Positions 14,394-35,390 are shown, numbered from the stretch's first letter. The stretch is 64,000 bases of DNA from an uncultured Oligoflexia bacterium (GCA_964475985.1 CAYYYP010000005.1:15269-79268); one strand, 5' to 3'. Notes: generated by a model not told the origin, from the letters alone. Program-made: numbers and translations.

Positions 14394-14519
14394 GGACTAG
14401 GCGATTTTTACCTGGCGCTTATCCACACCTAAACATCCTCAAGCTGCCTTGACGCATCCGTTACCACGAAGGGAGCAAGCGTTAACTTCACTAACTATTA
14501 TTTACCGTGAAAACTGCCC

Positions 14520-15110: not shown

Positions 15111-15139
15111 AGAAAACCCCCTCCACTAGCCCTGTTAGT

Positions 15140-15772: not shown

Positions 15773-15835
15773 GTTTTTTACACGTATTCAGTAGTAAAGG
15801 TCTGACAAAGTTTTATTTTTAGTGAGAGGACTTTC

Positions 15836-16120
15836 ATGGCAACCCATAAATCAGCAGTAAAAAGAGCGAAACAAAACGAGAAAAAACGCGAACGTAACTC
15901 TGGCCTTCGCGCCACGACCCGTACGGCGCTTAAAAAGGCCCGTACGTCCGTAGAAGCAGCAAAAACCTCCGATGAAGCAAAACAAGCGCTTCAATTGGGT
16001 GAACGTCTTTTGCGTAAAGCTACCTCCAAGGGTGTAATCCCCGCGGGTCGCGTAAACCGTTTGGTGAGTCGTTTGGCCTCTGCCATCAGCCGCCGTTTTT
16101 CCAGCACAGCCGCTAAGTAA
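15836..16120 (+). CDS. rpsT: 30S ribosomal protein S20
   Basis: 94 aa, MATHKSAVKRAKQNEKKRERN... Basic and helical. It is colinear with S20. Confidence 0.85.
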   Translation: MATHKSAVKRAKQNEKKRERNSGLRATTRTALKKARTSVEAAKTSDEAKQALQLGERLLRKATSKGVIPAGRVNRLVSRLASAISRRFSSTAAK

Positions 16121-16185
16121 TCTACTTTTAGACACTTCATTTTTTGTCGAGTCTTTGAGAGATCAAAGGCTCGACAAAAAGTAGT
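16120..16185. terminator. bidirectional terminator hairpin between rpsT and holA
   Basis: Inverted repeat ttttgtcgag...ctcgacaaaa with flanking T-runs and A-runs. Confidence 0.5.
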
Positions 16186-17107
16186 CTACACTTCTGGGGG
16201 CTGGTTCCCCTGAGGATTTCAACCTTTCATCCAATAACAAAAGGTTTCTTAGAATTTTCTGCTTTTGATTTGGGGCAGTTTCAGAGCTTCGATTTTTCAA
16301 AGACCATAACAGAGCCCCCACAAAACCCAAGGCCTGTTCTTGGCTTTCAATCAAACGGGCCGATAAAATAAGTGCTCTAACTTTTTTATTTTCAAGTACC
16401 GCCCGGCAAAGATCAAAAATGGAAGTTTGCGCTCCGTTGAAAACGACGGAAACCAAAGCATCCTTCGTTGCTACTAAAGAAGGGCTTAGAAAAAGCTCCA
16501 ATTTTTGGAGCTCCATCACAACCTGACTCAGGGTTTCAAACTCAAAACTTGAAAACCATTCCAGTAAGCTTGGTTCAAATTCCAAGGATGTTTGCGAAAC
16601 CAAATATCTAATCCACCTACTGCGCTCAAAATCCTTCGGTGACGTACAGTCCCAGAGCGCGTTGGCTTTTTTCAGCATTTGCGAAAGTTTTCGGCGCTGA
16701 TCCAATACCGCTGATTCAAAAATAAATATCGCAGGTTCCTGCGCGATTTCTTCAGAACTTAATCGGCTCAAGGTGTTGATACGTTTCGTAAGATCCGTCA
16801 AAAAACCTTGGGACTCCCCCAGCACCAAGGAATTCCTGATAAAGACTAACTTAGGCCCTGCTGAATTCCTGGCAGAAAAAAGGTCCACGCAAGCGACCTC
16901 ATCCAAAATTTCTACCCAAGTTTTTTCCTTGGCATCGAAAGTATTTAACGCGGTCAGGGAGGCATTTTTTTCAATTCCATGAAGTTTTAAAATCTGCTCT
17001 AAAAGTTCATTTCGACGGACCGATTCGTTGCCAAAAAGCCCGTAAACCAGGGTTTTGGTAAGCTTAGCGCGCTGAGGGTCCGGATGCTCCGTCTTTGCTG
17101 CCTTCAA
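16163..17107 (-). CDS. holA: DNA polymerase III delta subunit
   Basis: 314 aa with the N-terminal pattern LVYGLFGNESVRRNELLEQIL. It sits immediately downstream of lptE, as in the conserved lptE-holA pair. Confidence 0.6.
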   Translation of the reverse strand: MKAAKTEHPDPQRAKLTKTLVYGLFGNESVRRNELLEQILKLHGIEKNASLTALNTFDAKEKTWVEILDEVACVDLFSARNSAGPKLVFIRNSLVLGESQGFLTDLTKRINTLSRLSSEEIAQEPAIFIFESAVLDQRRKLSQMLKKANALWDCTSPKDFERSRWIRYLVSQTSLEFEPSLLEWFSSFEFETLSQVVMELQKLELFLSPSLVATKDALVSVVFNGAQTSIFDLCRAVLENKKVRALILSARLIESQEQALGFVGALLWSLKNRSSETAPNQKQKILRNLLLLDERLKSSGEPAPRSVDYFLSSL

Positions 17108-17745
17108 AAAGCCTCCATCATGGTGTCGTAGGAGTCAGCCGCAATGAGCAGGGAAATGTCGTGCAGAGCATTTTGAAACCTGCTCTCGTTAATGAGGACT
17201 GAAGTATTTCCTAAATCACCTGCGATATTATTTCCCGGATAGAGGCGGGACCTAGAAAATCCTTTTCCCCAAAGTACGGCGCCGTCCCGTCGTTTCAGAT
17301 AAAGCGTTACCCCAGCGGTGGCTTGATACTCAGATGCCACGATGAAGTTTGAAGGAAGTGGGGCCGTACCGGTCGGCGAGTTTTGATTGAGTTGGGTTGC
17401 GCCGGAGACGCTGGTTACACTGCTCTGGGCTAAGTCAATGCTGCCGGTCAAAACGGCATCCGCATCTTCCACCCGGTCGGTGAGCTGAACCCTGCCCTGC
17501 TTTGCGTATTCCTGAAGTAATGCGCTAGTAAAGGGCACTTCAAGGCCAGCCTTAAGCGTGTTGTTTTTCAAAGGGTAGATATAAAGTTTATTAATTTTTT
17601 CCCGTGACCAAATATTTTCGGGCGAACGTAGATGGTAACCGCATCCCGTTACGCCACTTAAAAACAAAATTAAAAAACCAAGGGGTAGCGCCCTACGAGA
17701 GAGAAATCCTAAGGGCTTTGATAACTTTTTCCAATTTACGATCAT
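17104..17745 (-). CDS. lptE: LPS-assembly lipoprotein LptE
   Basis: Lipobox LSGVTGC followed by GYHLRSP (the LptE CG[FWY]HLRG signature). The start chosen is the ATG at 17745, which overlaps the upstream gene's 3' end. The ORF is open to 17847. Confidence 0.65.
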   Translation of the reverse strand: MIVNWKKLSKPLGFLSRRALPLGFLILFLSGVTGCGYHLRSPENIWSREKINKLYIYPLKNNTLKAGLEVPFTSALLQEYAKQGRVQLTDRVEDADAVLTGSIDLAQSSVTSVSGATQLNQNSPTGTAPLPSNFIVASEYQATAGVTLYLKRRDGAVLWGKGFSRSRLYPGNNIAGDLGNTSVLINESRFQNALHDISLLIAADSYDTMMEAF

Positions 17746-18736
17746 CCAAACGAGCCTTATCACGATACTGATTCTCCAACTCCTTGAGAGCTTCAAGGGC
17801 TTTCTGCTGTGGGTCCTTGTGGGCCGACTTGGACATGAGATTATCAAAAATATTCGTAATGGCTACAATCCTTGCAAGGTCATAAATGGCAAGGCCCTTC
17901 ATTCCCTTAGGAAAGCCCGTCCCATCCAAAAATTCATGGTGCTGTGCCACGATCATAAGCACTTCAGAGGGGATCTCCCGAGCATTTCGGTTCATTCCTT
18001 CGAGGAGATCACGCCCAATATTGGGGTGCTCCAGCCATTCTGGGTCATCTTCCTGAATGAGCCCCTCGGCTTTAACGCTCAAGGCTGTTTTGCCAATGTC
18101 GTGCAGGAGACCGCCAATGGCTAAATGTTCCAAAATAACCTGGCTAGTGTAACCAAGACGCAATCCAACAAAAATGCTCGTAACCGATACATTCACGGCA
18201 TGATCGATGGCACCTTTACCAAACTTATGAAGGGAGGCAACATTGTTGATGACAAAAGGCTTATCCAAAAATGCGGTGACCAGCTCTCGCGAGCGCTGAA
18301 GGGAGAACTTAATGGCCTCCTGTTTGGCGTGGGCTTCAAAAAGTGAAAACACACTTTTTCGCAAATCCAACACCGCGCCACGAATCGGCGCTTCCGCTTC
18401 AGGAACTTCGGCAGGTCGACTCACTTTCTTTACCCCGGCCAAAATTTCTTCAGGCGTTTGTTTTTTCAGGTCTTTGATATCGTTATTCTCAGCCCAAAGG
18501 AGAAATTCCAATTTACGTTCTTCGGGAATAAATACGGTGCGGACTTGGTTGAATAAAAGTTTATCAAACTCGGCCGGACTCAACTCATCGCCTTGGGACT
18601 TATACTTTACTAGTTTATGCCGTAAGCACAGAAAAAGATCGCCCGGCAGAGGCTGGGACGCAAGGAGTCGCAAAGTTGGCCAGGAAAGCTGACACGAAAT
18701 CTTTGTTTCTTCAGATTCTTTTTTTTTTGGCATCAT
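17693..18736 (-). CDS. HD-GYP domain c-di-GMP phosphodiesterase with an N-terminal domain of unknown function
   Basis: 347 aa with GGLLHDIGK and HHEFLDGTGFP motifs. It begins 13 bp downstream of the pelG-fusion stop on the same strand. Confidence 0.8.
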   Translation of the reverse strand: MMPKKKESEETKISCQLSWPTLRLLASQPLPGDLFLCLRHKLVKYKSQGDELSPAEFDKLLFNQVRTVFIPEERKLEFLLWAENNDIKDLKKQTPEEILAGVKKVSRPAEVPEAEAPIRGAVLDLRKSVFSLFEAHAKQEAIKFSLQRSRELVTAFLDKPFVINNVASLHKFGKGAIDHAVNVSVTSIFVGLRLGYTSQVILEHLAIGGLLHDIGKTALSVKAEGLIQEDDPEWLEHPNIGRDLLEGMNRNAREIPSEVLMIVAQHHEFLDGTGFPKGMKGLAIYDLARIVAITNIFDNLMSKSAHKDPQQKALEALKELENQYRDKARLDDRKLEKVIKALRISLS

Positions 18737-18749
18737 TCTCCCACCTTCT

Positions 18750-21131
18750 TTAATTTTTAAAAAAACTTCCGTCTAAGGCCCGGCCGGTGACTAACCCTAA
18801 AAATCCGTGCTTTTTCAAAGCTTCCAGCGCTTTTGCAGTTTGTCCTCGCCCCGTTAAATATTCTACGCCTAAAATGAGCTTCCGAGGCAAAGACTGCGAT
18901 TGCAGTTTTTTGACGCAGGACAGTACCTCTATCTGTGGCCGCCAAGGGTTATCCTGCCAGTTTGATCCGAAATAAAATGTTGATTCCAGAGCCAGAAGAT
19001 CAAAACTTTCTAAAAATTTTTTCTGGACCTCAAACTCTTTGAAGGCCGCTAGTTCAAGGAAAAGGCAGGGCGCATTCTGAATTGCTAAAAGAGCGGGTTC
19101 ACTCCCCCAGATGGATTTCATTTTTGCCCGCAGATCAATCACCAACTCAGCCATTTGGGTTGCGCGCAATGCTTGCTCAGCCTTGGGAAAGCGGCCATAG
19201 GCGTCGATCAAATCTAAGTACACACCGTTGAATCCTGCATCGTGGATTTTCCGTAAGTAATCATAAAGCACCGCGCGCCACTGCGGATCCCAAAATTTAA
19301 GCAGGTGATTTTTTTTAAACCGTTTGTTTTCTGAAACCAGAAGGCCCCTTTGCTTTATGCCTTGAAAGTACCAGCGATACTCCTCCGCTTCCCCAACGCT
19401 GAGGTAGGCTAGACTCCGGTGGGGATCACTCGGCGCGGTGGCCGAAAGGGTTTTTAGAAGATTTTTATTGGGTTCAAGCAAACTGATATCAAGCACGTAA
19501 AGCGTGGTTTGCCGCGCCGGCCGGTTTGAAAGGCCAGTAGGATCACCTTGAAGCTGATATATCCATTTTTCTATTTTAGGAAGTACGGCAGCTGTGTCTA
19601 GGGGACGGGCCGTTACCGGACTTGAAAATAGGGGCAAGGCAATCAGCGCCCAGATGAAGGAACTTTTTAGACTTCTATTTCGCGAAAAGAATTTATGTTT
19701 TGATTTCTTTGCGGAAGCAAGCGGTTGACGCTGAAAAATTAGAGAGTGCAATCGTCCCAGGACGTTATTTAGGTCCGTTAGGGAAACCGTAAGGCAAACC
19801 AGTGCCGCAAAGGCATAACCCATTCCAAAATATTTTCCGTAGTTGCCGCCAATGAATTTTAAGGAGAGCAGCGTGCCCCCGAGGTTGAGCAAAAACAATA
19901 TCAGATAATTTTTAAGCGCCATGAAGGGTAGGTCGAAATACAAAATGAGTAAGTTTGTAATGAGTGCAAAGGCATGAAACATGCTCCCAAGAAGCCCAAA
20001 TCGAAATACAATCAAAGTTACGGCCGGCAGTTTAAAGTACTGGGTGATGGTGGCAGACGCGGAATAAGCTAGGGCCGTGATTAAAATCTGAAATAAGAAG
20101 AGCCATTTGAATTCGGTGCGTAAACCCTGCACCATACGTTGCCTCGCATCTTCAAGCATCGCCAAGGGTGCCTTTTCATGAATCAAGCCAAAATATTCGC
20201 GGTAACGCATGTAAAATTTCACTTCAATCTGCACTAGAAATAATGCCATGGCGGGCACGACAAAAAGATATCCTAAAAAAATTCCGGCATCGTAGGAGGT
20301 TGACTTAAATAAGCCGTAGGCAACTTTTTCGCGGGTATGGGAATTGGTCCAAAAAAGAATTTTGTCGCACCACACCCCCAGGGAATAAAAGAAACCCACA
20401 GCACTTAAGACCCACCTCGTTTTCCAAAATTCTAAAAAACTTTCGCTGTGGGCTACCTTCGGTGAAAGGGACGGAGAATGCGGGGATGTTTGGAATTCCA
20501 ATTGGACTTTGCGAATGAGAATACCGTCGATCAATAAGTTGCCTAAAATAAAGCTTGTGAGTAGCCAGTTCAGCCCACTTATTCCGAGCTTACCGCCCAT
20601 CCAGACAGCCGAAATACTTAAGGCAGCACCGGCGATAAAACCCCAAACGATGGATAAATAATCCTTAAGGGCGCCTAAGAAAATCATGCAAACCCATTGA
20701 CCCATCAGCACCGCAATGACGATGCCGCATAAAACTAAGCTCAAACCAGGAATTTTAAGCAAATAAAAAAAGATCAGTCCGAGGGCTAAACCTACTGCCG
20801 TCGTTCGCCAAAATACCCGTTTAAAAAAACTCCCAATGCCTTCAATATTTTTAAAATAAAGGGCGTCGGCAATAAAGCGGGTGATGACCATTTCAACCAC
20901 GCCAAACAAAACGAGTGAAAAAGCGTAGGAGTAATTCAGAATTACGCGGAAAACTTCCCCGGATTTAGGTTCAGGAAAACGTTTAGCCAAAGAAGAAATC
21001 ACGGCAATGGTAAGAATTGCCATGAGCCAAGGACCGGAAGAAACTACTACGGAACCTAGGAGGCCTTGAGTCCTTTGAAACCAATTTCCGTGTTTGATGG
21101 CCCGGTGGAGGCGAAAGCCTATTCCTGCCAT
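18750..21131 (-). CDS. pelG: PelG-like polysaccharide exporter (MOP/MATE-like multi-TM protein) fused to a C-terminal GH114-like (PelA-hydrolase-type) TIM-barrel domain
   Basis: The start MAGIGFRLHRAIK is PelG-like and is followed by about 12 hydrophobic helices. Next comes a basic segment plus an extra hydrophobic helix (KSKHKFFSRNRSLKSSFIWALIALPLFSSPVTA). The following roughly 290 aa carry GH114/DUF297-like motifs (LAYLSVGEAEEYRWYF; WDPQWRAVLYDYLRKIHDAGFNGVYLDLIDAY). It is a single uninterrupted ORF. Confidence 0.6.
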   Translation of the reverse strand: MAGIGFRLHRAIKHGNWFQRTQGLLGSVVVSSGPWLMAILTIAVISSLAKRFPEPKSGEVFRVILNYSYAFSLVLFGVVEMVITRFIADALYFKNIEGIGSFFKRVFWRTTAVGLALGLIFFYLLKIPGLSLVLCGIVIAVLMGQWVCMIFLGALKDYLSIVWGFIAGAALSISAVWMGGKLGISGLNWLLTSFILGNLLIDGILIRKVQLEFQTSPHSPSLSPKVAHSESFLEFWKTRWVLSAVGFFYSLGVWCDKILFWTNSHTREKVAYGLFKSTSYDAGIFLGYLFVVPAMALFLVQIEVKFYMRYREYFGLIHEKAPLAMLEDARQRMVQGLRTEFKWLFLFQILITALAYSASATITQYFKLPAVTLIVFRFGLLGSMFHAFALITNLLILYFDLPFMALKNYLILFLLNLGGTLLSLKFIGGNYGKYFGMGYAFAALVCLTVSLTDLNNVLGRLHSLIFQRQPLASAKKSKHKFFSRNRSLKSSFIWALIALPLFSSPVTARPLDTAAVLPKIEKWIYQLQGDPTGLSNRPARQTTLYVLDISLLEPNKNLLKTLSATAPSDPHRSLAYLSVGEAEEYRWYFQGIKQRGLLVSENKRFKKNHLLKFWDPQWRAVLYDYLRKIHDAGFNGVYLDLIDAYGRFPKAEQALRATQMAELVIDLRAKMKSIWGSEPALLAIQNAPCLFLELAAFKEFEVQKKFLESFDLLALESTFYFGSNWQDNPWRPQIEVLSCVKKLQSQSLPRKLILGVEYLTGRGQTAKALEALKKHGFLGLVTGRALDGSFFKN

Positions 21132-22756
21132 GGTAAACTCTCTTGATTTATCCCACTGATATCGACACCACAAATAAGTTCGTTATAAAACTTGTCATAC
21201 TGCTCAAAAAGTTCCTTTTCGTGGTAAAAATGGCCAGCCCTAAGCATTCCGGCCTGGGAGCACTCTTCCCAAAATAGATCTTCCATCATAAGGCGCATTA
21301 TGGATTGAGCAATCCCTAAGCCATCGCCTAAGGGAACGATAAGTCCGCTGGGTCCTAAAATACGATCGGCTTCCGATAACCCTAAAATCATTTCCCGGCA
21401 CGCACCCACATCGGTCGCCACTACCGGTACACCGGCCGATGAAGCCTCCAGAATTACCAGGGGCTGAGACTCTGAGATGCTGGTGAGCACCAAAACATCG
21501 GCGGTCTGCAAAACTTCCGTGGCAGGGAGTAGACCTTCGAATTTTATGAGCTGAGAAAGGCCAAGGATTTGCACCATTTCTTCGCACTCTTTTACATAAT
21601 CCTTCTCTTCATTGTGGGGTCCGACGATGCGGCAAAAAAATGAAATCGGTTCCGCTTGGCTGACTTGCAAATCAAAAAGTAACTTTATGGACTTGATAAG
21701 TAGTTTGATATCCTTAATGGAAACCACTCGGCCTAAGAAAAGAATTTCGAAGGGTCGTTTTTCGGCGCGTTTTTTTGGCCAAAGTGGATGCCGAGTTCTT
21801 ATGCCTTGGTAACGATTGTGTACGCCATTAGGAACCACAAAACACTTTTTGGGATCGGCGCCATCAAATACTTGCCGTTTACGATTGCCTCCGTGCAAAG
21901 TAACCACGCGCGAAGCACCGGCGTAGGCTAAAGCACTCAAGTTCCTAAAGACATTGATCCACCAGCTACGAAAATGTTTCAAAGGCTCAAAGGGAAGTTG
22001 CAGCAGAAGGCCAGGATCATAAAGCCAATTGGCTTCCCCCAATTCAATGGCGCGCTCATGAGCATAGATACCATGTTCCGTAACCATAAAGGGTGAAGCG
22101 TGCTGCATTGCCGCCAATATACCGCAAAGCCCCGCATATCCCGTACACATGGAATGGTACACTTTGGCGTTGGGGTAACTTAAATTGATGAGCCGCAGAA
22201 GCGGAATTTGGATGGCGCGCCAGGAATAAAAAAAGTCAAGAAAGGGCAAACCTTGTTTCATGGGGGATACCCGCTCGTATTCATCAACGATGACGTCCCA
22301 GGCGTCCTCGCTTTGCAAATGCCTGAGTACACTTTCCGAGGACATGCTTTTGGCAAACTTTTTAAGTTTAAATAAATCCTGTTTATTAAATTTAGCGTGT
22401 TGCAAATCCTCGGGACTTTGAAAAATATCAAATCCATCGTGAACGGAATTACCCTGGATCAGCGTCTGAAATTCCTGGAAGGAGGCCATGGCGGCTTGCA
22501 GATTCTTGGCGTTCAAGGCGCCGGTATCGGACGAAAATTCGTCAAACAGAAATACCTCCCTTAAGTGCAACACATTAGCCGGCAATTCGTACTGCATTGG
22601 CGGCAATTGATCGGAGCGTGAACCCAGGTAGAGAATTTCAAATGTGAGATGCGGCAAACCTTTGATCAAGGCGTGGGTCCAACTGGCCACTCCGCCGTAA
22701 ACGTAGGGGTAAGTGCCCTCTAGTATTAAGCAGACATCAGCCACGGGCCACCTCAT
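21119..22756 (-). CDS. pelF: PelF-like GT4 glycosyltransferase
   Basis: 545 aa. The N-terminus VADVCLILEGTYPYVYGGVASW is the PelF-specific DUF3492-like start. The C-terminal half is a GT4 fold. Confidence 0.75.
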   Translation of the reverse strand: MRWPVADVCLILEGTYPYVYGGVASWTHALIKGLPHLTFEILYLGSRSDQLPPMQYELPANVLHLREVFLFDEFSSDTGALNAKNLQAAMASFQEFQTLIQGNSVHDGFDIFQSPEDLQHAKFNKQDLFKLKKFAKSMSSESVLRHLQSEDAWDVIVDEYERVSPMKQGLPFLDFFYSWRAIQIPLLRLINLSYPNAKVYHSMCTGYAGLCGILAAMQHASPFMVTEHGIYAHERAIELGEANWLYDPGLLLQLPFEPLKHFRSWWINVFRNLSALAYAGASRVVTLHGGNRKRQVFDGADPKKCFVVPNGVHNRYQGIRTRHPLWPKKRAEKRPFEILFLGRVVSIKDIKLLIKSIKLLFDLQVSQAEPISFFCRIVGPHNEEKDYVKECEEMVQILGLSQLIKFEGLLPATEVLQTADVLVLTSISESQPLVILEASSAGVPVVATDVGACREMILGLSEADRILGPSGLIVPLGDGLGIAQSIMRLMMEDLFWEECSQAGMLRAGHFYHEKELFEQYDKFYNELICGVDISGINQESLPWQE

Positions 22757-23969
22757 GACTTGACCAGTGGTTCAAGCAGGCGGCAGCCCTTACGAATAGG
22801 GGTCCAGAGAGGCCTATTTCGTCAAAGACCCATTTTGAAAAATGAAGGACCTCAGATGATTTAGGACGATCTAAGTTCAAGATCGCAAGAATGGTCTGGG
22901 CCATTTCAAGATTTTTTACCGTCGTAGCGTTTCGTAACAATGAGAAAAGAATTTCAAACGGAATTCTTCGTCCCGAAATATTCTTATTTTGTAAACTTCC
23001 TTGCAGTAGCCTTAGGAGTTGAAGCTGTAATTCCGGTTTGAGTTCTTGCTCAAGTAAATTCATTAACACGTCCCGGAAGAGCCACGCCTGCACCCGCAGA
23101 AAATCCATTAATAGATTTGCCTTTGCGGTATCCGGATGCATGCCTAGGGCGAGCACTTCTTTCCAGTACTTGAGGGACCACTTCACCGGTTTTAAGAAAT
23201 TAAGGATTAGCCTTAGGAAATGTTCATCAAAATCAAAAATTTTTATGGGTTCATAAGCCTGCTGCGTTACGGAAAGGGCAATCTCCCGAGCCAAAATCTC
23301 ACGATAGCGGCTCAAAATTTGGTTGGTTTTGTCCGGCAGGCTGCTTAGAGACATGCTTTTCAACTCAGCGTGAAAAATTTCCACCTGATTGCTCCGCGCA
23401 CCACAGATGAGCAACTCTTGGCAAAGCCCTTCCACCGCCTCCTCCATAAAGCCTGCTTTAAAAAACTGAAACCGTTCCAGAATCAGACGCTGAATTCCCG
23501 GGTCCTTTAAAAGATAGGGACGTTTTGCGAGATGATGGAAAAAAACCGCTAAGAATTCTACCCCACCCCCTTTGCATGATTCATAAAATCTCAGGACCGA
23601 TTCCGGCTGCAACGCCCTAATTCCAAAAAAAGACTTTAAGATATTAAGGCTTAAAAAACTTGTGGGTTGGACTCCGGGAAGCGCTAGTGCCGAAATTAAA
23701 GCGCTAAACCACCCTTCGCATTCCCTAAGCCCTAAAGTGCCTAGGTTCACCAGAGCTTGCATCACCTCAATCATCGCCCCCTGAACCACGAGGGTTTCCC
23801 GGGAAAAAATTTTCCCGTACTCCTGAGTCGGAAAGGCCTTAGGATTTTCGGGCAACCTTAACCAGGCGATTCGCCTTACCAGCTCATCCGGATCCTGGAG
23901 TAATTTTGTTAGCTCCGAAGTTTCAAGAATCGCTTGGTCTTGCCATAAAAAATTCAAATCCCTATTCAT
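22737..23969 (-). CDS. hypothetical soluble helical protein inside the pel-like operon
   Basis: 410 aa with no obvious transmembrane segment and no recognised domain. It is Leu-rich and helical. It overlaps neighbours by 4 to 20 bp, which is operon-style packing. Confidence 0.4.
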   Translation of the reverse strand: MNRDLNFLWQDQAILETSELTKLLQDPDELVRRIAWLRLPENPKAFPTQEYGKIFSRETLVVQGAMIEVMQALVNLGTLGLRECEGWFSALISALALPGVQPTSFLSLNILKSFFGIRALQPESVLRFYESCKGGGVEFLAVFFHHLAKRPYLLKDPGIQRLILERFQFFKAGFMEEAVEGLCQELLICGARSNQVEIFHAELKSMSLSSLPDKTNQILSRYREILAREIALSVTQQAYEPIKIFDFDEHFLRLILNFLKPVKWSLKYWKEVLALGMHPDTAKANLLMDFLRVQAWLFRDVLMNLLEQELKPELQLQLLRLLQGSLQNKNISGRRIPFEILFSLLRNATTVKNLEMAQTILAILNLDRPKSSEVLHFSKWVFDEIGLSGPLFVRAAACLNHWSSHEVARG

Positions 23970-24757
23970 TTAAAGTTTTGCTCCAGCCAAAAGAGAACCT
24001 GCTCGCGAATTTCATCGGGCAATTTATCGCTGCCGCCACAACGACGCACCAGCTCCTGGCAGCATCGTTTTACCCCCGGAAAGTCCGATTGCATAAAATA
24101 GGCTTCCGCTTTCCAAAACCAGCCATTAAACCAATCCGGCGCAAAAACCATGGCCTGGTCAAAACAGAAAATCGCCTTTTCCAAAAGATTTTCCTGAAGG
24201 TGTATTTTTCCCAACTGTCGCCAGTAATAGGTATTATCCGGATTGCTCTCCACTGCCGCCTGCATGAGTTTTCTCCCAATTTGAATGTGGGAGTACGTTA
24301 CTTCTGGATCCATAAGTCCCGTGCGGTAAGCGATCATCAGTGATTCGATTAAGTTGTAAAGCTCCTGCGGCGAGGGCTTAGCGACGTCAGGGTAGGAGCT
24401 TAAAAGTTTCACCTCGTTTAACCAACGCTTTTCAAAATAAGCTAAGGCCTGCGTCGCTAAATAACAAATTTCATAATCTGGATCGCGCTGGGCCACTCGC
24501 AAGAGTATGACGCTATCCCGAGAGAATCGCCTCTTTAAGCGTCCAATGACTTCACGCTTCACACTTTTACTGCCTCCGCGAATGAGATCACTTAGGGATT
24601 GCAGCGACATGTTTTCTGAACTTAAGGCATCTTTAGCGAAAATCTCGGAATAACTTTTAGCCAATAGTTCGAGGGATCGTTCCTGAAAAAAACGCTCATC
24701 GGCCGCTTGGGTATCATAAAATTCCTGGAGTGCCCGGCCGCGGATGTTTAAGCTCAC
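23966..24757 (-). CDS. TPR-like repeat protein, possibly a PelE analogue lacking transmembrane helices
   Basis: 263 aa with TPR-like helical repeats (YYWRQLGKIHLQENLLEKAIFCFDQAMVFAPDWFNGWFWKAEAYF). No hydrophobic anchor. Confidence 0.45.
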   Translation of the reverse strand: MSLNIRGRALQEFYDTQAADERFFQERSLELLAKSYSEIFAKDALSSENMSLQSLSDLIRGGSKSVKREVIGRLKRRFSRDSVILLRVAQRDPDYEICYLATQALAYFEKRWLNEVKLLSSYPDVAKPSPQELYNLIESLMIAYRTGLMDPEVTYSHIQIGRKLMQAAVESNPDNTYYWRQLGKIHLQENLLEKAIFCFDQAMVFAPDWFNGWFWKAEAYFMQSDFPGVKRCCQELVRRCGGSDKLPDEIREQVLFWLEQNFK

Positions 24758-26310
24758 GATGGAGTTATCCCAGTAAGACCATTTTTATTGATATAACTCT
24801 TCCACGATAAATTTTTATCCTCACTCTTCACGGACTCTGGGTTCACCTCGATTCGCTTCATACCAAGCGCCGGCAAACCAGTAATAAATTGCCTTAAACG
24901 CGCATATTCATGCGTAACTGATTCATCCAACGCACGTAAAGTTGCTCCGTCTACACCTCGGGCAAATAACTTAAAGGAAGCATCCTTCGGATCACTATAA
25001 AACGTGGCTTGCCCCGCGAGACTTAAGTGCGCGATGCCGTCGCTTAAGGCCCGAGAAAACGCTTTTCGAAATACGATTTCACGTGCCTCTAAAAAATCGA
25101 CATCGGGCCACTCCGGGGTCCATTCCAAAAGACTCAAATTGATTTTTGTTTTTTTTGCGAGCAACCAATCTTCTTCGGCCCGTACATCTAAAACCCTTGT
25201 GGAAAAACATTGGCCGATAAAGTCCCAAAAATCATCCTCCTGATTTTGGGTTAAGCCCTGGCTCTTGCGGAGGGCCACGCCAAACCACCGAGAAAGTTCG
25301 CGCAATGCCGCAAAGTTAGAACTTTTATAATTCATGAACTGAAAGCTGTGGAACAGGATGACCCCTAAAATATTTTGGGAATCATCCATAAGCGGAACGA
25401 CCACGGGGTACCGTGCACGACTCCCCTTAGAAGATCCGGCTGCGTTCTCCCCGGCGTAGAGCTGAAATGTAAATACATCCCGGTTAGAAATTGCGTATCC
25501 AATCTCACTAATCTCCGAAAATTCCTTCCGAGGAATTTCCTTAGGAAATCGTTTTTGATCCGCCACAACGGGCGCCAAGCGCTTGAGCCCCGGATGTTCA
25601 AAACGATAGATCGCAAAATCCTCCTCGCTAAAATATTCCGAGAGAAACCGGTAAAAACGTACGCCTAAAAGTTCGGTTGAGATATTAAAGGATTCTCGGC
25701 CAAAACGAAAAATTTCAAGTGCGCTCTGCACTCTGGCCGCAAGCCTTCGTTCCATGTTCTGGCTTTCGGCAGTGAGACGTTGTCGCACCACTGCAGATTC
25801 CCCTAAGTTGTGAAGTAATTTTTGGTTTTCATCTTCAATGCCCTTAGTTTTCCGCCGAAAAGCATCTCCCACTACGCCAAAGGCAAAGCAGGTTAAGAGA
25901 AACGAAAGCGGAAACTTAAAGTAATTTGCGGAAAATACGCTCTCAACCTCAAGCACATCGAGCCTACTGGCTTCGTAAAAAAAATAAAACCCACCGTAGA
26001 CCACTCCCAAAAGCAGGGCAGGTTTTAGACCAGCAAGTACCGAGAGGATGCCCAGGCAAAAAAGATAAGGGTGTGGGTTCACGTCAATATAGGCCGGATT
26101 TCCGCCATTCAGTAATCCTAAAATCAGTCCGGGAAGCAGTCCCACCAGAAAGGCCGAAAGGGAATGGGTCATGGTCGGGAAATATTTTTGAATCTTAAAA
26201 CCACCAGCTAAAAATCCCCTTGGCGACGTGGACTCCTGCAAATCCTCCAGTGGGTTCCGTGGCGGAACCGGGGGCGTTGGCGTTGAAGAGCTGGGATGTG
26301 TAGAATCCAT
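24754..26310 (-). CDS. pelD: PelD-like c-di-GMP receptor (N-terminal transmembrane helices + GAF-like + degenerate GGDEF)
   Basis: There are four hydrophobic helices in the N-terminal 150 aa, followed by a soluble region of about 350 aa. Its position between PelB and PelE/F-like genes matches pel gene order. The start may instead be MTHSL (26172). Confidence 0.5.
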   Translation of the reverse strand: MDSTHPSSSTPTPPVPPRNPLEDLQESTSPRGFLAGGFKIQKYFPTMTHSLSAFLVGLLPGLILGLLNGGNPAYIDVNPHPYLFCLGILSVLAGLKPALLLGVVYGGFYFFYEASRLDVLEVESVFSANYFKFPLSFLLTCFAFGVVGDAFRRKTKGIEDENQKLLHNLGESAVVRQRLTAESQNMERRLAARVQSALEIFRFGRESFNISTELLGVRFYRFLSEYFSEEDFAIYRFEHPGLKRLAPVVADQKRFPKEIPRKEFSEISEIGYAISNRDVFTFQLYAGENAAGSSKGSRARYPVVVPLMDDSQNILGVILFHSFQFMNYKSSNFAALRELSRWFGVALRKSQGLTQNQEDDFWDFIGQCFSTRVLDVRAEEDWLLAKKTKINLSLLEWTPEWPDVDFLEAREIVFRKAFSRALSDGIAHLSLAGQATFYSDPKDASFKLFARGVDGATLRALDESVTHEYARLRQFITGLPALGMKRIEVNPESVKSEDKNLSWKSYINKNGLTGITPS

Positions 26311-28972
26311 AACTCAAATGTAAACTCATCGTACCTAAAACAAAATCACCAAGGTCAAATTCCAAATATTCTGTGGTATTTCCCGCAACTTCCCGTTGAG
26401 GCCCGTTCTCAAAATTTTTGCCCCATCCGCCAGAGATCTTAGGGCCGCTCGCAAAATAACCAGACTGACGCAAAGCGCCGTTAGTTGCATTGCGACACAA
26501 GCTGTCCCATGCACAGAAAATTTCAAATGAAATAAAGCCACCGCCAAATGCCATCCGTTGAAGCATCAGGTTTTCCAGGGACTCACCGCTAGCCAATCGA
26601 CCGTTGCCTACCCATCTCAACCACTGTGCCCAGGGACCCACCGAGAATCCTAATGTGTTTTCAGGTTTCCCAAAGGAAATTCTTGAACTGGACTCCAAGC
26701 CAAAGCCCTGAGCAAAAGCAAAATGATCTTCAGAATTATTTACGTGGGTGAATCGAACGCGTGCCCCTTGAACAAAAAGTATCCAAGGATGCAAAATGAC
26801 TTCCCCATAACCCTCAAGGGTAGACTCCGAGGCTCCGGCGCCCACGAGTGAACGAGAAATATTTAAGGGGGCAGAGAGGTTTGCCTCTAACATACCGTAA
26901 CGTAGTGCTCCGTAGGCGGCCATTAACCTGGTCTCAAGTCTTGGCCTGAATCCACGCCAATCGCCGAGCTCGGTGAGTCGCACACCCGCGCGCATTTCCC
27001 AAGCAAGCGTAGGGCTCATCGTGTAGCTCACAAAAGCTTCCGGAGAAATGAGATGAAGGTGGTTGTCCCAAAATGACTCCTGACTCACGATGACCCCTAA
27101 CCGCCAAGCAGTCTGTTTTAGCGGTGTATGAAAAATCAGGTTTTTTTCCGTCGTAGAAAATTCATCTAAAAACACGCCATTAAATTCAAAACCAAAGTAA
27201 TGCGATTGCGGCAATGCCAGTTCATTTACCAAAATCGCTTCCGCCGTTTTTGTACCCTCAGCGGCTTGAAGTTCAACGGATTTTGCGGCCACTTCATTTC
27301 TTTTTGCGAGATCAATTTCTTGCAAACGGGAAACGACGTCAACCAAAGTTAGTCGTTCGGCAGGTAACCGTTTTTCTATCTCTGCTTCAAGCCGCGGCAA
27401 TTGTGGTCCGATTAGCCTGGCCTCCGTATCGGTTAGCCCACCAGCCTCATACTTTGCGATGAAACCGATGGCCGTAAGTACCGGTGCATTTGAGAAAGTA
27501 AAATTTTTAAGCTGGCCCTGAAATTCAAGCAGACCAGAAGCCTCTCCACTCCAAAGGTACCTTAAAAAAAGCTGTTCAAGCACGTGGGTTTTTAATTTGG
27601 TAAGCCCTGGCCTGGCTTCAAGTTTTCGCCAAAGCTCCATGTATGACTTTCTTGCTTCCTCATTTTTTTGCTGAGCCTCAAGGCTAGCCACCAGGAGTCG
27701 GTAGTCCTTCCAAAGTTCTTCCCCGCTCAAAATCCCCGCGGATTGGGCTAAGGCGTTAGGGAAGGGAGTTAAAAGTTCTAAGAACTTAAGTAGGAAATAG
27801 GACCGTTGCTTCAGTCGCTTCATTGCGGCTTTTGGATCTTCACCCGCAACTAAGGCTTGCATGATTTGTTCAGCAAGTTGTGGGTCATGGAAATCTAATG
27901 CTGCTTGGGCAAAGCTTCGCCATGTTTCCCGCGAAATCTTTAAATCCCCGATCAAGTTATCATCAAAAAGAAATTCCCTAAGGGCTTGCCGAGCGACCCG
28001 CGCTCCATCGGCTCCGATACCGGCTTGCACGTGCAGGGCATCAAGTTTGAGCTGCAAAAAGTCAATTCCGCGCTGAGTAAGCAGAGCCTGGTGTGTAAGC
28101 GCTAGTTGAAAAAGCGAGTAAGCTTCGCCCTTAAGCGCAGGAAATTTAGCGGCATCAAAGGCAATATCCAGAAATGCGTGGATCTCGGCATTCCATTCAC
28201 GTACGGAAATTTTTTGGCAATAGTTCAAGTAGTCCAGCAGGGCACGGCGCAGCTGTGAGAAGTCACTTAAGTTCGTGTCTCGAAAGTTTCGTTCAGCGCG
28301 GCTTACCCAATAATTTAGTCGGAAAATCGTAATTCCGTAGGCCTTAACGCTTTTGTCATCACCCAGAATTTCAAACGCACGCTTAAAGTTTCCTTGGCTT
28401 GCAAGGGTACGAAGCCACCGGTTGAAATCATCAAGGGGTAAAAGACTTTGGCGCCAAATTTTTTCATAAACCCGCAGCGCATCGGGCGCCGATTGCAGCC
28501 ACTCATAATCATGGGCTAACCGCAGATAACGGGCGGGCCCTGACTGCGGAGCCGTCACCACCTCTTCCCCCCTGAGATTTTGCACGTGCGGTAACGGAAT
28601 TTTATTATCCCATAGATATTCCTCAACTCGGGCGGCTTCCAGCGCCCGGCCCTGCCACCTCAGTTGCCGCAACAGACGCTCCCAATAGTTTTTATTGTTA
28701 GGCCTGAGTTTCGTAAGGTCATAAAGAATTTTTATGGCCTCTGAAACATTGCCTTCCACTTCCAGCACATCCACCATTTGCCTTAACGCCACGGCATCTG
28801 GCATTTTCGTAAGCATAGCCCGCCGGAGAATCGGCTCGGCAAGTTCTGGCTGAAAGCTTTGAAAACGCAAGGCCGCTAACTCGGTGTCACTTGGCATGGT
28901 AAAAAACAGACTCAGCGCACCCATGCTAAAAAAAGCCAAAATTAAACTAGGATCCATGAAATTTCGTTTCAC
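26195..28972 (-). CDS. pelB: PelB-like TPR scaffold with a C-terminal outer-membrane beta-barrel
   Basis: 925 aa with an N-terminal signal/anchor and many TPR-like helices. The C-terminal roughly 300 aa show alternating hydrophobic beta-strand character and end ...GIFSWWF (a terminal aromatic). Confidence 0.55.
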   Translation of the reverse strand: MKRNFMDPSLILAFFSMGALSLFFTMPSDTELAALRFQSFQPELAEPILRRAMLTKMPDAVALRQMVDVLEVEGNVSEAIKILYDLTKLRPNNKNYWERLLRQLRWQGRALEAARVEEYLWDNKIPLPHVQNLRGEEVVTAPQSGPARYLRLAHDYEWLQSAPDALRVYEKIWRQSLLPLDDFNRWLRTLASQGNFKRAFEILGDDKSVKAYGITIFRLNYWVSRAERNFRDTNLSDFSQLRRALLDYLNYCQKISVREWNAEIHAFLDIAFDAAKFPALKGEAYSLFQLALTHQALLTQRGIDFLQLKLDALHVQAGIGADGARVARQALREFLFDDNLIGDLKISRETWRSFAQAALDFHDPQLAEQIMQALVAGEDPKAAMKRLKQRSYFLLKFLELLTPFPNALAQSAGILSGEELWKDYRLLVASLEAQQKNEEARKSYMELWRKLEARPGLTKLKTHVLEQLFLRYLWSGEASGLLEFQGQLKNFTFSNAPVLTAIGFIAKYEAGGLTDTEARLIGPQLPRLEAEIEKRLPAERLTLVDVVSRLQEIDLAKRNEVAAKSVELQAAEGTKTAEAILVNELALPQSHYFGFEFNGVFLDEFSTTEKNLIFHTPLKQTAWRLGVIVSQESFWDNHLHLISPEAFVSYTMSPTLAWEMRAGVRLTELGDWRGFRPRLETRLMAAYGALRYGMLEANLSAPLNISRSLVGAGASESTLEGYGEVILHPWILFVQGARVRFTHVNNSEDHFAFAQGFGLESSSRISFGKPENTLGFSVGPWAQWLRWVGNGRLASGESLENLMLQRMAFGGGFISFEIFCAWDSLCRNATNGALRQSGYFASGPKISGGWGKNFENGPQREVAGNTTEYLEFDLGDFVLGTMSLHLSYGFYTSQLFNANAPGSATEPTGGFAGVHVAKGIFSWWF

Positions 28973-31077
28973 AGGCGTCGCACCTCGATGGTTTGCGGCA
29001 CGGACTTTACCTCAAAATCCAAAGCGAGGATTCGTTTATCCTTAGACCGCACTTTACCTCCTACTACCGTAACCCCTTCAAGCGAAGTGTCTCTCGCCTC
29101 AAGAATTAAGGGACCTCGTGCCCAAGCCGCTAATTTCACCCGTATACCTTTCTTTGTCGGCAGCACATCAAAGGCGTCCACAACTCCCCCAACACTTTGC
29201 AACGCAAATGGAAGGGAGGAATTCATAAACCGGCAATGCGGACTTCGGTAGATTTGAACTTTAAGGTTTTGTCGATGCGGCATGGGATGCAAGTAAGTTT
29301 TATTTTTAATCCGAACAGATCCCATGAAATCCTTGGACGACACACAGAAGCCTGGGTCCTCCAGTCGAAAATCCGCCACGTTACCCACATTGCGAATCTC
29401 CAGAGTGTTGGGTTTACCCAACTCATGGTAAAAATCAGTCTCTAAAAATCCCTCGACGGCGCGTATATAAGTGGTCGGCGGCACCAGGGCAATCTCCTCG
29501 GAGTGAGCTTTAAACCAACGAATGATATTTTTTAATGCCAGGAGGGATTGCGGTCTTTCACCTGAGTAAAAATGAAAATACGCATTGGCCGGTTTCAATG
29601 TGAAACCCAAGGGTGAGTTAAGGCCGGTATTTTCATAGGTTTGAATGACACTTTCAAATCCGCGGTAATTTTTTGTAAACCCATCAGTGTAAATGAAGTC
29701 ATTGGCGTTTCCAGAAAACACCTGGAAGCCCGAGGCCCAAGGCCTCCCAAGTGGCGCCAAAAAAGCCAAGGAAGGAAACACCGTATCAAATCTAGAATCA
29801 CCGCCGTTTAAGTTATAAAGTCCGGCGGCCTTCGTCATTCTCATTGCCCGCTCCCCCGGAACGCAGCCGCCCGACCAGTAAATCGTTTCAACCTCAGATT
29901 CTTTTTTTTGCAAAAGCTTCGCAATGGCGCTGCGGGATTTGAGGATCTCTATCTCAAGGTCTATTTTCTCGCGCGAACCATCATCAAAACTGGTCGTACC
30001 CCTCATCCAATTCAGAGGATGAAAAAAAGTATGCGTAGCAAACTCTACATTTTTTAAATTTCCAAAACTTTTTACAATGGACTCTGTTCGTTCATTCCCC
30101 AGGTGCCGGCTTAAGACTTCGCTTGCGATAAAGGAGACGCCAAAGGGAATGTCAGGATTTCTCAGGAGAATTTCATCCCGGATCACTTCGCCGGAGAGGG
30201 GCTCTGGTTGTTTTTCAAAATGCGCTTCCGAGGAAAAACCATCACCATCGGTGTGTAAAAAAGCAATCCTGCGACCGTTCAGAACCGAAACGTCAGGAAC
30301 GATCATTTCTTTCGGTAAACCTAAAGCCCGTTGCAAAAATAATATGGGGTTTACAACCCATTGCCGCCTTTCTGAGCCTACGTCACTGAAGAGGCCGAAG
30401 TTCCCGTAGGCCCAAGAGAAGTTTTTTGCGGAGTGCGCGATCTGACTGAATAAAATCGATTCCTGGGCGCCCTTAGGCGAACCCATGGCGAGAAGCGTCT
30501 CGCCCGCATGGGCCCTAACTCTTAAAGTAACAAAGTCGTCCACCCACTCCGGGGACTTTCTCTCAAAATCTAAAACGGCCGCCTGATTTTTAATCACCTT
30601 CAAACCAAAGGGTTTGGTTTCAAAGTGCTGATACTCCGCCCCCCATCGCAAAAAGAATTCGTTTAGATTTGCGGCCGGGATCTGTGATAAAAAACCAAAG
30701 CTTCCAAAGGCGATCCACTTAAGTCTGGTCTGCGCTAAAGAATTGAGCCAACGGAAAAGTTTTTGATGATTGACCAGACTTTCCGAAAAAAAAAGGGTCG
30801 CTACGGCGCGAACTTTATTGTCCTGAATCAATTCCGAAGCAGGTGGCAACGTCTGGGTATCAATGTCGATGAGGCGGGTGCGCATCCCCAGCAACTGCAG
30901 AGGGAACTCTAGGGCAAGGCTCGCGGGGTTATCCGAAATACTGCCCGATTCCTTAGAGGACCAGAGGCAGATCACTTCCCTTGGAAAAGGAAGAGACGCT
31001 GAAAAGGCAAACCGCGGAAAAAAATCTACCAAAATCAAACAAATGAAAAAGATTTTTATTTGATTTTTTTTCCCCAT
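28969..31077 (-). CDS. pelA: PelA-like polysaccharide deacetylase (CE4) lacking the N-terminal GH114 hydrolase module
   Basis: 702 aa with a signal peptide. It has CE4-like motif 1 (AFLHTDGDGF) and motif 2 (ATHTFFHP). This length fits the reductase-like, CE4 and jelly-roll parts of PelA without the hydrolase domain. Confidence 0.55.
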   Translation of the reverse strand: MGKKNQIKIFFICLILVDFFPRFAFSASLPFPREVICLWSSKESGSISDNPASLALEFPLQLLGMRTRLIDIDTQTLPPASELIQDNKVRAVATLFFSESLVNHQKLFRWLNSLAQTRLKWIAFGSFGFLSQIPAANLNEFFLRWGAEYQHFETKPFGLKVIKNQAAVLDFERKSPEWVDDFVTLRVRAHAGETLLAMGSPKGAQESILFSQIAHSAKNFSWAYGNFGLFSDVGSERRQWVVNPILFLQRALGLPKEMIVPDVSVLNGRRIAFLHTDGDGFSSEAHFEKQPEPLSGEVIRDEILLRNPDIPFGVSFIASEVLSRHLGNERTESIVKSFGNLKNVEFATHTFFHPLNWMRGTTSFDDGSREKIDLEIEILKSRSAIAKLLQKKESEVETIYWSGGCVPGERAMRMTKAAGLYNLNGGDSRFDTVFPSLAFLAPLGRPWASGFQVFSGNANDFIYTDGFTKNYRGFESVIQTYENTGLNSPLGFTLKPANAYFHFYSGERPQSLLALKNIIRWFKAHSEEIALVPPTTYIRAVEGFLETDFYHELGKPNTLEIRNVGNVADFRLEDPGFCVSSKDFMGSVRIKNKTYLHPMPHRQNLKVQIYRSPHCRFMNSSLPFALQSVGGVVDAFDVLPTKKGIRVKLAAWARGPLILEARDTSLEGVTVVGGKVRSKDKRILALDFEVKSVPQTIEVRRL

Positions 31078-31149
31078 GCCTTTGTAGTCTACAGGTTTTT
31101 TTTCTTTCTTCCATTCTTGCGTTCTTTGGGACTAGGCTATGACTTCATC

Positions 31150-31455
31150 ATGAAGGACCTCTCCCAAATTTTAAAAGACATCATGGGCCGCAATGAAACG
31201 TTCAAACGCAAAGAGCGTGAGTACAGTCTGCTTAACCAATGGGATAAAGTGGTGGGCGCTAGGCTTGCGCAGCATACTAAACCGCTTTATGTCACCCAAG
31301 AGGGAGTCCTGCTGGTAGCTACGGAGAGTTCCATTTGGAGTCATCAACTGAAATTTTTGGAGCGCCAAATCATTGAGCGGGTCAAAAAAGATGATCCTCA
31401 GTCCCGGGTAGTATCCATTCGTTTCATCGTAAAAACTGACCTCCAAAGCCTTTAG
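31150..31455 (+). CDS. DUF721/DciA-like small protein
   Basis: 101 aa from the ATG at 31150. The pattern WDKVVGARLAQHTKPLYVTQEGVLLVATESSIWSHQLKFLERQIIERVKK fits the DUF721 family. Confidence 0.4.
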   Translation: MKDLSQILKDIMGRNETFKRKEREYSLLNQWDKVVGARLAQHTKPLYVTQEGVLLVATESSIWSHQLKFLERQIIERVKKDDPQSRVVSIRFIVKTDLQSL

Positions 31456-31562
31456 TTGAGTAAGGCCACTTTGACACAGGGCTGATTTCCATAGGGAATC
31501 CTTTACCCATGCGCCACAGACTTGGTGAAGAGTTCATATTCCTTTACAATAAGAAGTGTTGA

Positions 31563-32769: not shown

Positions 32770-33279
32770 TTAAGCCGCCTCACCCCGAAGCAGACGCAAA
32801 ATCCAAATAAAAACCATACCGGCCAGAATGCTGAGAAGAAAAATAAACACTGGCCAAAGATTTAAGAGTTCACGTTTCGGTTTTACCGAAGTTGCAGGCA
32901 CTTCAATGGGAGCGCTGACTCGAGACGCACCCGCCTGAGTTTTAGGCTGCCAAGACTGAGCCTCCAAAGAATTTGTAATGGTCTTTGATTCTTCTCCCGC
33001 GGCCGTTCCTTCGGGATCTAACGCCTTTTCCCTTCGATTTTCTAACGCCTGCACTAAGATGTTTTTTTCAATATTAAAATGCCTGTAAATTTCCTCAAAG
33101 GAATCCACGGAAAACCAGTACCCATTAGACGGGCAAAGCTCGTCTTTGGGATTCATATAACTGCCCAGTAGCATTTCCTTCACCTGAGACTCATAAAAAG
33201 GTCCCTGAATATCGGCACTGTACTGATTCCATTTGCGCAGCAGCCAAAGCTCAGACTTTTCGGTTGGCGCAGAATTCAT
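32770..33279 (-). CDS. hypothetical C-terminally membrane-anchored protein
   Basis: 169 aa. The C-terminus carries a hydrophobic helix, LWPVFIFLLSILAGMVFIWIL. Confidence 0.35.
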   Translation of the reverse strand: MNSAPTEKSELWLLRKWNQYSADIQGPFYESQVKEMLLGSYMNPKDELCPSNGYWFSVDSFEEIYRHFNIEKNILVQALENRREKALDPEGTAAGEESKTITNSLEAQSWQPKTQAGASRVSAPIEVPATSVKPKRELLNLWPVFIFLLSILAGMVFIWILRLLRGEAA

Positions 33280-33281
33280 GA

Positions 33282-34556: not shown

Positions 34557-35380
34557 ATCGTTGCCTCAGGTGCGTGGCGAGCGACGTGGCTTCGCTCTGC
34601 GTCTAAAAAACTTTTCACCATGGGGTGATCACAATTTTGAAATTCATGGGGAGTCCCAAAAAACACGATTTCGCCTCGATGTAAGAAAGCCAGTTGATCT
34701 GCACAATTCACCGCAGAGAACATATCATGACTGATCACCACTGATGTCAAACCAAAACGCCGATTTGTTTGCACAATAAGCTCATCAACCGTATTTCTGG
34801 TAACCGGATCAAGCCCCGTAGTAGGCTCATCATAAAGGATGATTCGTGGTTCCAGAATAATTGCCCTGGCCAGGGCCACCCGCCGTTTCATCCCGCCAGA
34901 AATTTCCCGCGGAAACTTATCTCCGACTTTTTCGATATCAAGCCCTACGGCACTGAGTTTTTCGGCAACCTTGGCGTGCATTTCATCTCTAGAGAGCTTG
35001 GTGTGTTCAACCAGCGGGAAGCTCACATTGCCAAAAACTGTAAAATCATCGAAAAGGGCAGAACTTTGAAATAACATCCCAAAGTTTTTCCGAATTTCAT
35101 TCATATGCCTGGGATCCGTGCCCACCATGGGTTCACCGTTGATAAAAATCTCGCCAGAATCAGGGATTAAAAGCCCAAGCACGTGTTTGAGTAATACGGA
35201 CTTTCCTGAACCGGAAGAACCGAGAAGAAAAGTAACTTTGCCTTCCCATGCTGTAAAGTTCACTCCCTTTAGAATCTCATCTCGGCCCTTTCGAAAACTT
35301 TTTCTTAAGTTTCTGATCTCAATAGCCGGAACGTTTGGCCCGCCTGGGGACACTTTCTGATTTAAATTTTTCAACATCAA
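34553..35380 (-). CDS. mlaF: ABC transporter ATP-binding protein, MlaF-like
   Basis: Walker A GSSGSGKS, signature LSGGMKRRVALARA and Walker B ILYDEPTTGLD. Confidence 0.75.
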   Translation of the reverse strand: MMLKNLNQKVSPGGPNVPAIEIRNLRKSFRKGRDEILKGVNFTAWEGKVTFLLGSSGSGKSVLLKHVLGLLIPDSGEIFINGEPMVGTDPRHMNEIRKNFGMLFQSSALFDDFTVFGNVSFPLVEHTKLSRDEMHAKVAEKLSAVGLDIEKVGDKFPREISGGMKRRVALARAIILEPRIILYDEPTTGLDPVTRNTVDELIVQTNRRFGLTSVVISHDMFSAVNCADQLAFLHRGEIVFFGTPHEFQNCDHPMVKSFLDAERSHVARHAPEATI

Positions 35381-35390
35381 ATCATAATCC

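Follow-up and report, generated by a model that had tools for sequence, protein, structure and literature searches.

A pel operon probably inserted in front of a resident HD-GYP gene of a (leuS-)lptE-holA cluster in an uncultured Oligoflexia bacterium

Genes for enzymes of c-di-GMP (cyclic dimeric guanosine monophosphate) metabolism have been linked to pel exopolysaccharide loci before. Some bifidobacterial pel loci carry a diguanylate cyclase/phosphodiesterase (DGC/PDE) gene, and pelDEADAFG of Bacillus cereus is regulated by CdgF and CdgE (PMC7112168). Here we describe a 64,000-nucleotide stretch of DNA (the window) from an uncultured Oligoflexia bacterium (GCA_964475985.1, CAYYYP010000005.1:15269-79268), in which a gene for an HD-GYP-type phosphohydrolase of 347 amino acids (aa) directly follows a seven-gene pel block and is itself followed by lptE and holA. 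Like the bifidobacterial and B. cereus loci, the window has a c-di-GMP-type enzyme gene contiguous with pel biosynthesis genes. It differs from them in that this gene is of the HD-GYP type and, judging by its context in relatives, appears to belong to the recipient locus and not to the pel module. We consider it probable that the HD-GYP gene was resident in a recipient cluster, that the pel operon was inserted upstream of it in the window lineage, and that its product is a general phosphodiesterase. The tight packing of the two, 13 bp apart, would then most likely have arisen by chance when the operon came in, not as an inbuilt feedback on Pel.

The order leuS-lptE(rlpB)-holA, which we take to be a housekeeping cluster in Escherichia coli and other proteobacteria, recurs in three relatives of the window (loci L003, L086 and L092), and lptE and holA are tightly coupled in the window itself. 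Unlike the E. coli cluster, that of the window lineage is preceded by the HD-GYP gene, and leuS is gone from it in the window and in two further relatives, L001 and L002. Full-length homologues of the 347-aa protein fall into two tiers, a close clade at 42-50% identity and a broad set at 30-37%, the latter found in metagenome-assembled genomes (MAGs) named Oligoflexia, Bdellovibrionota or 'Deltaproteobacteria bacterium' by NCBI. We compared the genomic context of eight close-clade loci from different organisms, with HD-GYP orthologues 36-50% identical. In seven of the eight, lptE-holA or leuS-lptE-holA stands immediately downstream of the orthologue; in six of those seven, the other neighbour of the HD-GYP gene is dciA, which is on the opposite strand. 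Two of them read dciA(-)/HD-GYP-lptE-holA-rpsT(-) (L001, L002) and three read mlaE-mlaF-mlaD-x-dciA(-)/HD-GYP-leuS-lptE-holA (L003, L086, L092). The remaining two are short contigs, with dciA/HD-GYP-lptE ended by the contig end in L091 and HD-GYP-lptE in L102. Searches with the window's PelF, PelG-GH114, PelA-like and PelB-like proteins (tblastn) found no pel genes in the eight loci, and the seven that have HD-GYP upstream of (leuS-)lptE-holA hold no pel gene up to 10 kb on either side.

The linkage of HD-GYP to lptE is confined to the close clade, since distant homologues (30-37% identity; P0037, P0071, P0077) stand in unrelated gene contexts. A profile search of genome contigs with the full-length clade alignment (A1) gave, among the matches listed, only distant HD-GYP proteins at no more than 29% whole-protein identity, and a metagenome scan with an N-terminal alignment (A2) returned 12 loci, three of them informative (L091, L092, L102). 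Judged by gene order, the HD-GYP gene is the conserved head of an HD-GYP-(leuS)-lptE-holA housekeeping cluster in a lineage allied to the Bdellovibrionota. A sequence-only reading of the window had suggested that the gene is a built-in element transcribed with the pel operon and had itself named pel-free HD-GYP neighbours of lptE as evidence to the contrary. With the gene beside (leuS-)lptE-holA and no pel in seven of eight loci, that part of the reading is not supported.

In six relatives (L001, L002, L003, L086, L091 and L092), dciA diverges from HD-GYP-(leuS)-lptE-holA across a spacer of 45-65 bp. Three of the four such spacers examined have in common a motif that resembles a promoter: TTTACA (in L003, TTTGCA) and, after it, TTCAATA.

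In the window, the spacer between dciA and the HD-GYP gene is filled by the pel block (18750-31077, 12.3 kb), which places the two genes 12.4 kb apart and leaves 72 bp beside dciA and 13 bp beside HD-GYP. Around the block, the window is colinear with L001, sharing a NadB-like flavoprotein gene, alr, mlaE, mlaF, mlaD and a small open reading frame (ORF) on one side, and lptE, holA, rpsT, bioY, resB/ccsA, a phosphoribosyltransferase gene and topA on the other. L001 is the closest relative by flanking proteins (MlaD 77% and MlaE 78% identical; LptE 44%) and has neither pel nor leuS at the site. More distant relatives, with MlaD at 51-53%, keep leuS there, between HD-GYP and lptE in L003, L086 and L092. 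That leuS lies at the start of the window, as the sequence-only reading had noted, is correct (538-1, minus strand): residues 1-179 of the L086 LeuS match the window from 538 to 11 at 65% identity (tblastn, E 6e-74), with the start ATG at 538. Its suggestion that pel genes were inserted beside conserved housekeeping genes is likewise supported, and can be sharpened to the dciA/HD-GYP spacer. An independent Logan assembly (L090, SRR18715501) shows identical junctions of pelG-GH114, HD-GYP, lptE and holA with 100% protein identity, and therefore the arrangement is not an assembly artefact.

The most parsimonious history would run from an ancestral HD-GYP-leuS-lptE-holA cluster through relocation of leuS to insertion of pel. 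HD-GYP would have been the ancestral first gene of HD-GYP-(leuS)-lptE-holA, divergent from dciA across a spacer of about 50 bp, and leuS would have moved elsewhere in the common ancestor of the window organism and L001. Later, and in the window lineage only, the seven-gene pel-type operon of 12.3 kb would have entered the dciA/HD-GYP spacer in the same orientation, leaving only 13 bp with a ribosome-binding site before the HD-GYP gene. A more general caution follows from this locus: tight same-strand packing, here 13 bp, by a suggestive operon is no proof of membership, and synteny points the opposite way.

The 347-aa protein has an HD motif (H212-D213) and the sequence HHEFLDGTGFP, that is, GFP in place of GYP. 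Across the 33 members of alignment A1, H179, H212, D213, H237, H266, H267, E268, D271, G272, G274, P276 and D298 are invariant. These include the metal ligands of the binuclear centre (H179, H212, D213, H237, H266, H267 and D298), which align with the ligands of Bd1817 from Bdellovibrio bacteriovorus (PDB 3TM8). The motif HHExxDGxG[Y/F]P is also invariant across the clade; the consensus is GYP, and the window copy is one of four members with GFP. Because all ligands and this motif are intact, hydrolytic competence of the protein is likely.

Bd1817 is also the best match in structure. An AlphaFold 2 (AF2) model built from the clade alignment (pLDDT 87, pTM 0.87) has, in order, a four-stranded N-domain (strands 16-20, 34-38, 41-46, 67-71), two long helices (72-88, 113-134) around a disordered insert, a linker helix (139-158) and the HD-GYP domain. 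Its best full-length Foldseek match is Bd1817 (3TM8, 3TMB; E 2e-12), and the best match of the A1 profile is again 3TM8 (E 1.1e-33 over profile positions 9-290). Bd1817 shares the four-strand N-domain, long helices, helical linker and HD-GYP domain with the window protein at a sequence identity of only about 17-20%. A search of the 347-aa protein for the Pfam family DUF3391 (PF11871) gave no match, even with E values allowed up to 10; the sequence of Bd1817, too, departs widely from the DUF3391 domain consensus, and the fold of the 'Bd1817 family', DUF3391-HD-GYP, has been described (Galperin preprint). On the strength of the model, the 347-aa protein is of the two-domain Bd1817 architecture, a DUF3391-like N-domain joined to HD-GYP. 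The two differ at the active site, as Bd1817 has HEExxNGxG-P, without the Tyr and the second His (PMC3188283), and the window clade keeps HHExxDGxG[Y/F]P.

A second described protein bears on the Tyr to Phe change. PA4781 of Pseudomonas aeruginosa, a binuclear HD-GYP c-di-GMP/pGpG phosphodiesterase (PDB 4R8Z), has GFP for GYP as the window protein does (HHERWDGRGFPEG against HHEFLDGTGFPKG). This comparison covers the HD-GYP domain, which is all that the 4R8Z structure comprises. Taken together with the clade's conserved centre, these likenesses suggest that the protein is of the Bd1817 (DUF3391-HD-GYP) type and is a metal-dependent phosphodiesterase of cyclic dinucleotides, probably acting on c-di-GMP or pGpG. 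Full-length PA4781 is presumably a REC-HD-GYP response regulator. The position of a Bd1817-type HD-GYP gene at the head of leuS-lptE-holA suggests a constitutively expressed, general enzyme and not one dedicated to pel.

That the protein degrades c-di-GMP is plausible. In PmGH, the KPG and RxY[K/R] motifs (K235-G237, R314-K317) contact the guanines of c-di-GMP (Galperin preprint). Neither base-contact motif is recognisable in the clade, in A1 or in a profile alignment to 4MCW; the latter shows a shorter loop without KPG, and 'SESKA' opposite the 'SDRPY' of PmGH (SKSAHK in the window). Specificity for c-di-GMP is only putative because these motifs are not recognisable. It is conceivable, if doubtful, that the protein is not a c-di-GMP phosphodiesterase but hydrolyses another nucleotide (cGAMP, pGpG or similar) or works mainly by contacts with proteins, as the unconventional Bd1817 would, in which case the adjacency to pel would have no c-di-GMP meaning; such a role would be compatible with the insertion history. 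The best structural and profile match is indeed Bd1817, whose deletion was reported to give no phenotype, and the missing KPG and RxY[K/R] and the Phe of the window copy point the same way. Unlike Bd1817, however, the clade retains HHExxDGxG[Y/F]P in full, along with every ligand of the binuclear centre, and GFP also occurs in PA4781, which the PDB lists as a cyclic di-GMP phosphodiesterase. Moreover, a DUF3391-HD-GYP protein is described as the sole HD-GYP c-di-GMP phosphodiesterase in most Borrelia species (Galperin preprint).

If the HD-GYP gene is resident, an exopolysaccharide operon now separates the promoter region from the head of a cluster that includes the essential genes lptE and holA, and one may ask how these two are transcribed today. 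From 31077 to 16163, the minus strand carries an unbroken series of genes, seven in the pel block followed by HD-GYP, lptE and holA. After the TAA stop codon that closes the pel block (18750-18752) come AGAAGGTGGGAGA (18737-18749) and then ATGATG, with the HD-GYP ATG at 18736, and the 13-bp gap is essentially one ribosome-binding site. The sequence-only reading had this spacing right, but the gene upstream is a PelG-GH114 fusion and not plain pelG. It was also right that the 3' end of HD-GYP overlaps the start of lptE (by 53 nt) and that holA comes next (overlapping lptE by 4 nt). For lptE, only the ATG at 17745 makes a plausible start; it yields a lipoprotein signal ending in VTGC, and an independent gene call in L090 gives the same 213-aa LptE.

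A scan of 15000-32000 with sigma-70 and terminator consensus sequences found no terminator- or promoter-like site at 18700-18800, and site counts over the whole range were not above those of shuffles. The RNA fold at the junction is no more stable than shuffles (z = 0.51), and an Rfam scan of 14000-33000 detected neither a riboswitch nor a leader, its one match being a chance one below threshold. The promoter-like motif of the relatives (TTTACA and TTCAATA, about 17 bases apart) has no match on the minus strand at 16000-32000, even for TTCAATA alone. With no terminator, promoter or structured RNA at the junction, transcription may plausibly continue from pel into HD-GYP-lptE-holA. The overlapping genes and the lack of a terminator-like site are consistent with the read-through suggested earlier.

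A single transcript may now cover the ten genes from 31077 to 16163, provided that the GH114-coding part hides no unrecognised promoter. It is tempting to speculate that a ten-gene unit of about 15 kb, read from the spacer on the dciA side, ties lptE, holA and the phosphodiesterase to Pel expression, and that the enzyme has in effect been newly enlisted to restrain the PelD-dependent synthesis of Pel. We regard this as unlikely. Were it true, the unit would be regulatory wiring made by operon insertion and not by gene recruitment. On the preferred reading, a resident gene with pel inserted upstream, if co-expression damps Pel synthesis at all, it would do so as a side effect of that insertion.

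A stronger version, that the HD-GYP protein is a dedicated negative feedback of pel, with co-transcription selected as a means by which making Pel would bring down the level of c-di-GMP, the activator of PelD, seems to us quite unlikely. Much about the junction would suit it: the genes lie on the same strand, separated by a 13-bp gap with a ribosome-binding site and no terminator-like structure. The precedent of c-di-GMP-metabolising genes contiguous with pel loci (PMC7112168) means that such a scenario is not new in kind. The window also encodes a PelD-like protein whose family profile (A3) matches, at E about 5e-13, the PelD structures 4EUV and 4DMZ; the single sequence had no PDB match and no match to Pfam PelD_GGDEF, and only the family profile reached PelD. 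But where homologues of this protein carry the RxxD I-site for c-di-GMP, the window has R-A-L-S-D, and its role as a c-di-GMP receptor is only putative for that reason. The HD-GYP clade, for its part, is without recognisable base-contact motifs, and the gene neighbours lptE-holA in the seven pel-free loci described above. In addition, no HD-GYP gene is present in L088 and L089, the pel loci nearest to that of the window.

The window also encodes another HD-GYP protein. This second gene (3995-5467, plus strand), 12 kb from the first, has a GAF-HD-GYP architecture (Pfam HD_5 4.4e-32, GAF 8e-11), and the organism therefore has other candidate c-di-GMP phosphodiesterases, a further point against a feedback enzyme dedicated to pel.

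Several observations weigh against a resident HD-GYP gene with a later pel insertion, the reading we prefer. The pel block shows no deviation from its flanks in GC, third-position GC (GC3) or tetranucleotide composition, and its ends have no shared k-mers or repeats beyond A/T runs. With no compositional or repeat mark of recent transfer, the direction of change rests on parsimony, and gain here versus loss elsewhere is a choice by parsimony over seven loci. In the eighth, L087, the HD-GYP gene stands at a contig end and is followed by other genes, not lptE, so that HD-GYP-lptE linkage is not universal. A promoter-like match (10/12) at 19600-19573 lies inside pelG-GH114, where a simple scan cannot exclude a promoter, and the substrate of the enzyme, as discussed, is putative. 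We nevertheless find it very improbable that pel was ancestral at the site and cleanly deleted in all sampled relatives, with an originally pel-associated HD-GYP gene left behind: the matching composition and the absence of flanking repeats or mobility genes would fit long residence, but several independent precise deletions would be needed, each leaving a 45-65 bp spacer, three of these spacers have the common promoter-like motif, and both leuS-containing and leuS-less forms, including the closest relative L001, are without pel.

The features of the locus are collected in Table 1.

Table 1. Genes and spacers of the pel block, the HD-GYP cluster and their flanks, in window coordinates
Feature	Coordinates	Strand	Remarks
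leuS, 5' part (N-terminal 179 aa)	1..538	-	gene runs off left window end
rpsT (ribosomal protein S20)	15836..16120	+	Pfam Ribosomal_S20p 4.4e-17; convergent with holA
holA (DNA polymerase III delta subunit)	16163..17107	-	NCBIfam TIGR01128 1.7e-26, 93.3 bits (cut-off 80)
lptE, 213-aa lipoprotein	17104..17745	-	Pfam LptE 1e-9; lipobox VTGC
HD-GYP-type phosphohydrolase gene, 347 aa	17693..18736	-	Pfam HD_5 3.6e-19, HD 2.6e-10
13-bp spacer, pelG-GH114 stop to HD-GYP ATG	18737..18749	-	Shine-Dalgarno-like run AAGGTGGGAG
pelG fused to C-terminal GH114/TM1410-type glycoside hydrolase domain	18750..21131	-	Pfam PelG, Glyco_hydro_114
pelF glycosyltransferase	21119..22756	-	NCBIfam NF038011 PelF 4.1e-128; Pfam DUF3492 and GT4
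410-aa ORF inside pel block	22737..23969	-	L088: protein with faint HEAT_2 match at same position
PelE-like TPR protein	23966..24757	-	Pfam TPR_2 2.8e-8; by position and TPR content only
PelD-like membrane protein, 472 aa, GAF and degenerate GGDEF	24754..26172	-	start supported by P0238
PelB-like TPR protein, 925 aa	26195..28972	-	by position and TPR content; Pfam TPR_14, TPR_19 below curated cut-offs
first pel-block gene, 702 aa, PelA-like by position only	28969..31077	-	4-nt overlap with next gene
divergent spacer between dciA and first pel gene, 72 bp	31078..31149	.	replaces relatives' 45-65 bp dciA/HD-GYP spacer
dciA	31150..31455	+	tblastn with DciA of L001, L002, L003, L086: 32-43% identity, E 1e-16 to 3e-26
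orf169-mlaD-mlaF-mlaE	32770..36185	-	conserved left flank common to relatives; order as in L001

The last gene of the pel block encodes PelG (Pfam PelG 1.3e-96, residues 15-480) joined to a GH114 domain (Glyco_hydro_114 2.4e-14, residues 536-801), and the latter matches TM1410 and a GH114 TIM barrel in the PDB. The longest ORF extends to 21173; a 793-aa homologue, P0121, favours the start at 21131. Among 117 PelG homologues, the fusion occurs elsewhere only in P0121, which is 98% identical and from an independent assembly. The nearest other homologues are 35-39% identical, 464-474 aa long and without a GH114 domain. Both L088 and L089 have a separate GH114 gene that overlaps the pelG stop by 4 nt, and so the pel module of the nearest loci ends with a hydrolase, here fused to PelG. 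This suggests a recent gene fusion from separate, overlapping genes, by which a Pel membrane component would be physically joined to a Pel-type hydrolase; the hydrolase function of the pel block would be supplied by the fused domain. After its separate GH114 gene, L088 has an Hpt gene and not HD-GYP. The L088 pel locus has additional REC and Hpt genes.

Elsewhere in the block, the 702-aa first gene and the 410-aa ORF have no Pfam or NCBIfam match, and a 907-aa TPR protein occupies the PelB-like position in L088. The longest ORF for the PelD-like protein is 518 aa, and a homologue that is 99% identical (P0238) aligns to its residues 47-518; the longer frame probably over-extends the true protein. 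No ORF of the size of the lipoprotein PelC was found in the pel block.

Beyond the pel and HD-GYP genes, the flanks hold a few further features. The position of rpsT is the same in L001, L002, L086 and L092. Between dciA and orf169 lies a 398-aa ORF without a family match (31569-32765, plus strand); no gene is called opposite it in L001, and it may be a second lineage-specific addition. ResB and CcsA, of cytochrome c biogenesis system II, form a single 1117-aa ORF (10106-13459, plus strand) and are two adjacent genes in L001. Finally, the nearest homologues of TopA (6933-9620, minus strand), in MAGs that NCBI names 'Deltaproteobacteria bacterium', 'Bdellovibrionia bacterium' and 'Bdellovibrionota bacterium', are only about 46% identical, and the window therefore appears to come from a poorly sampled, deep-branching lineage.

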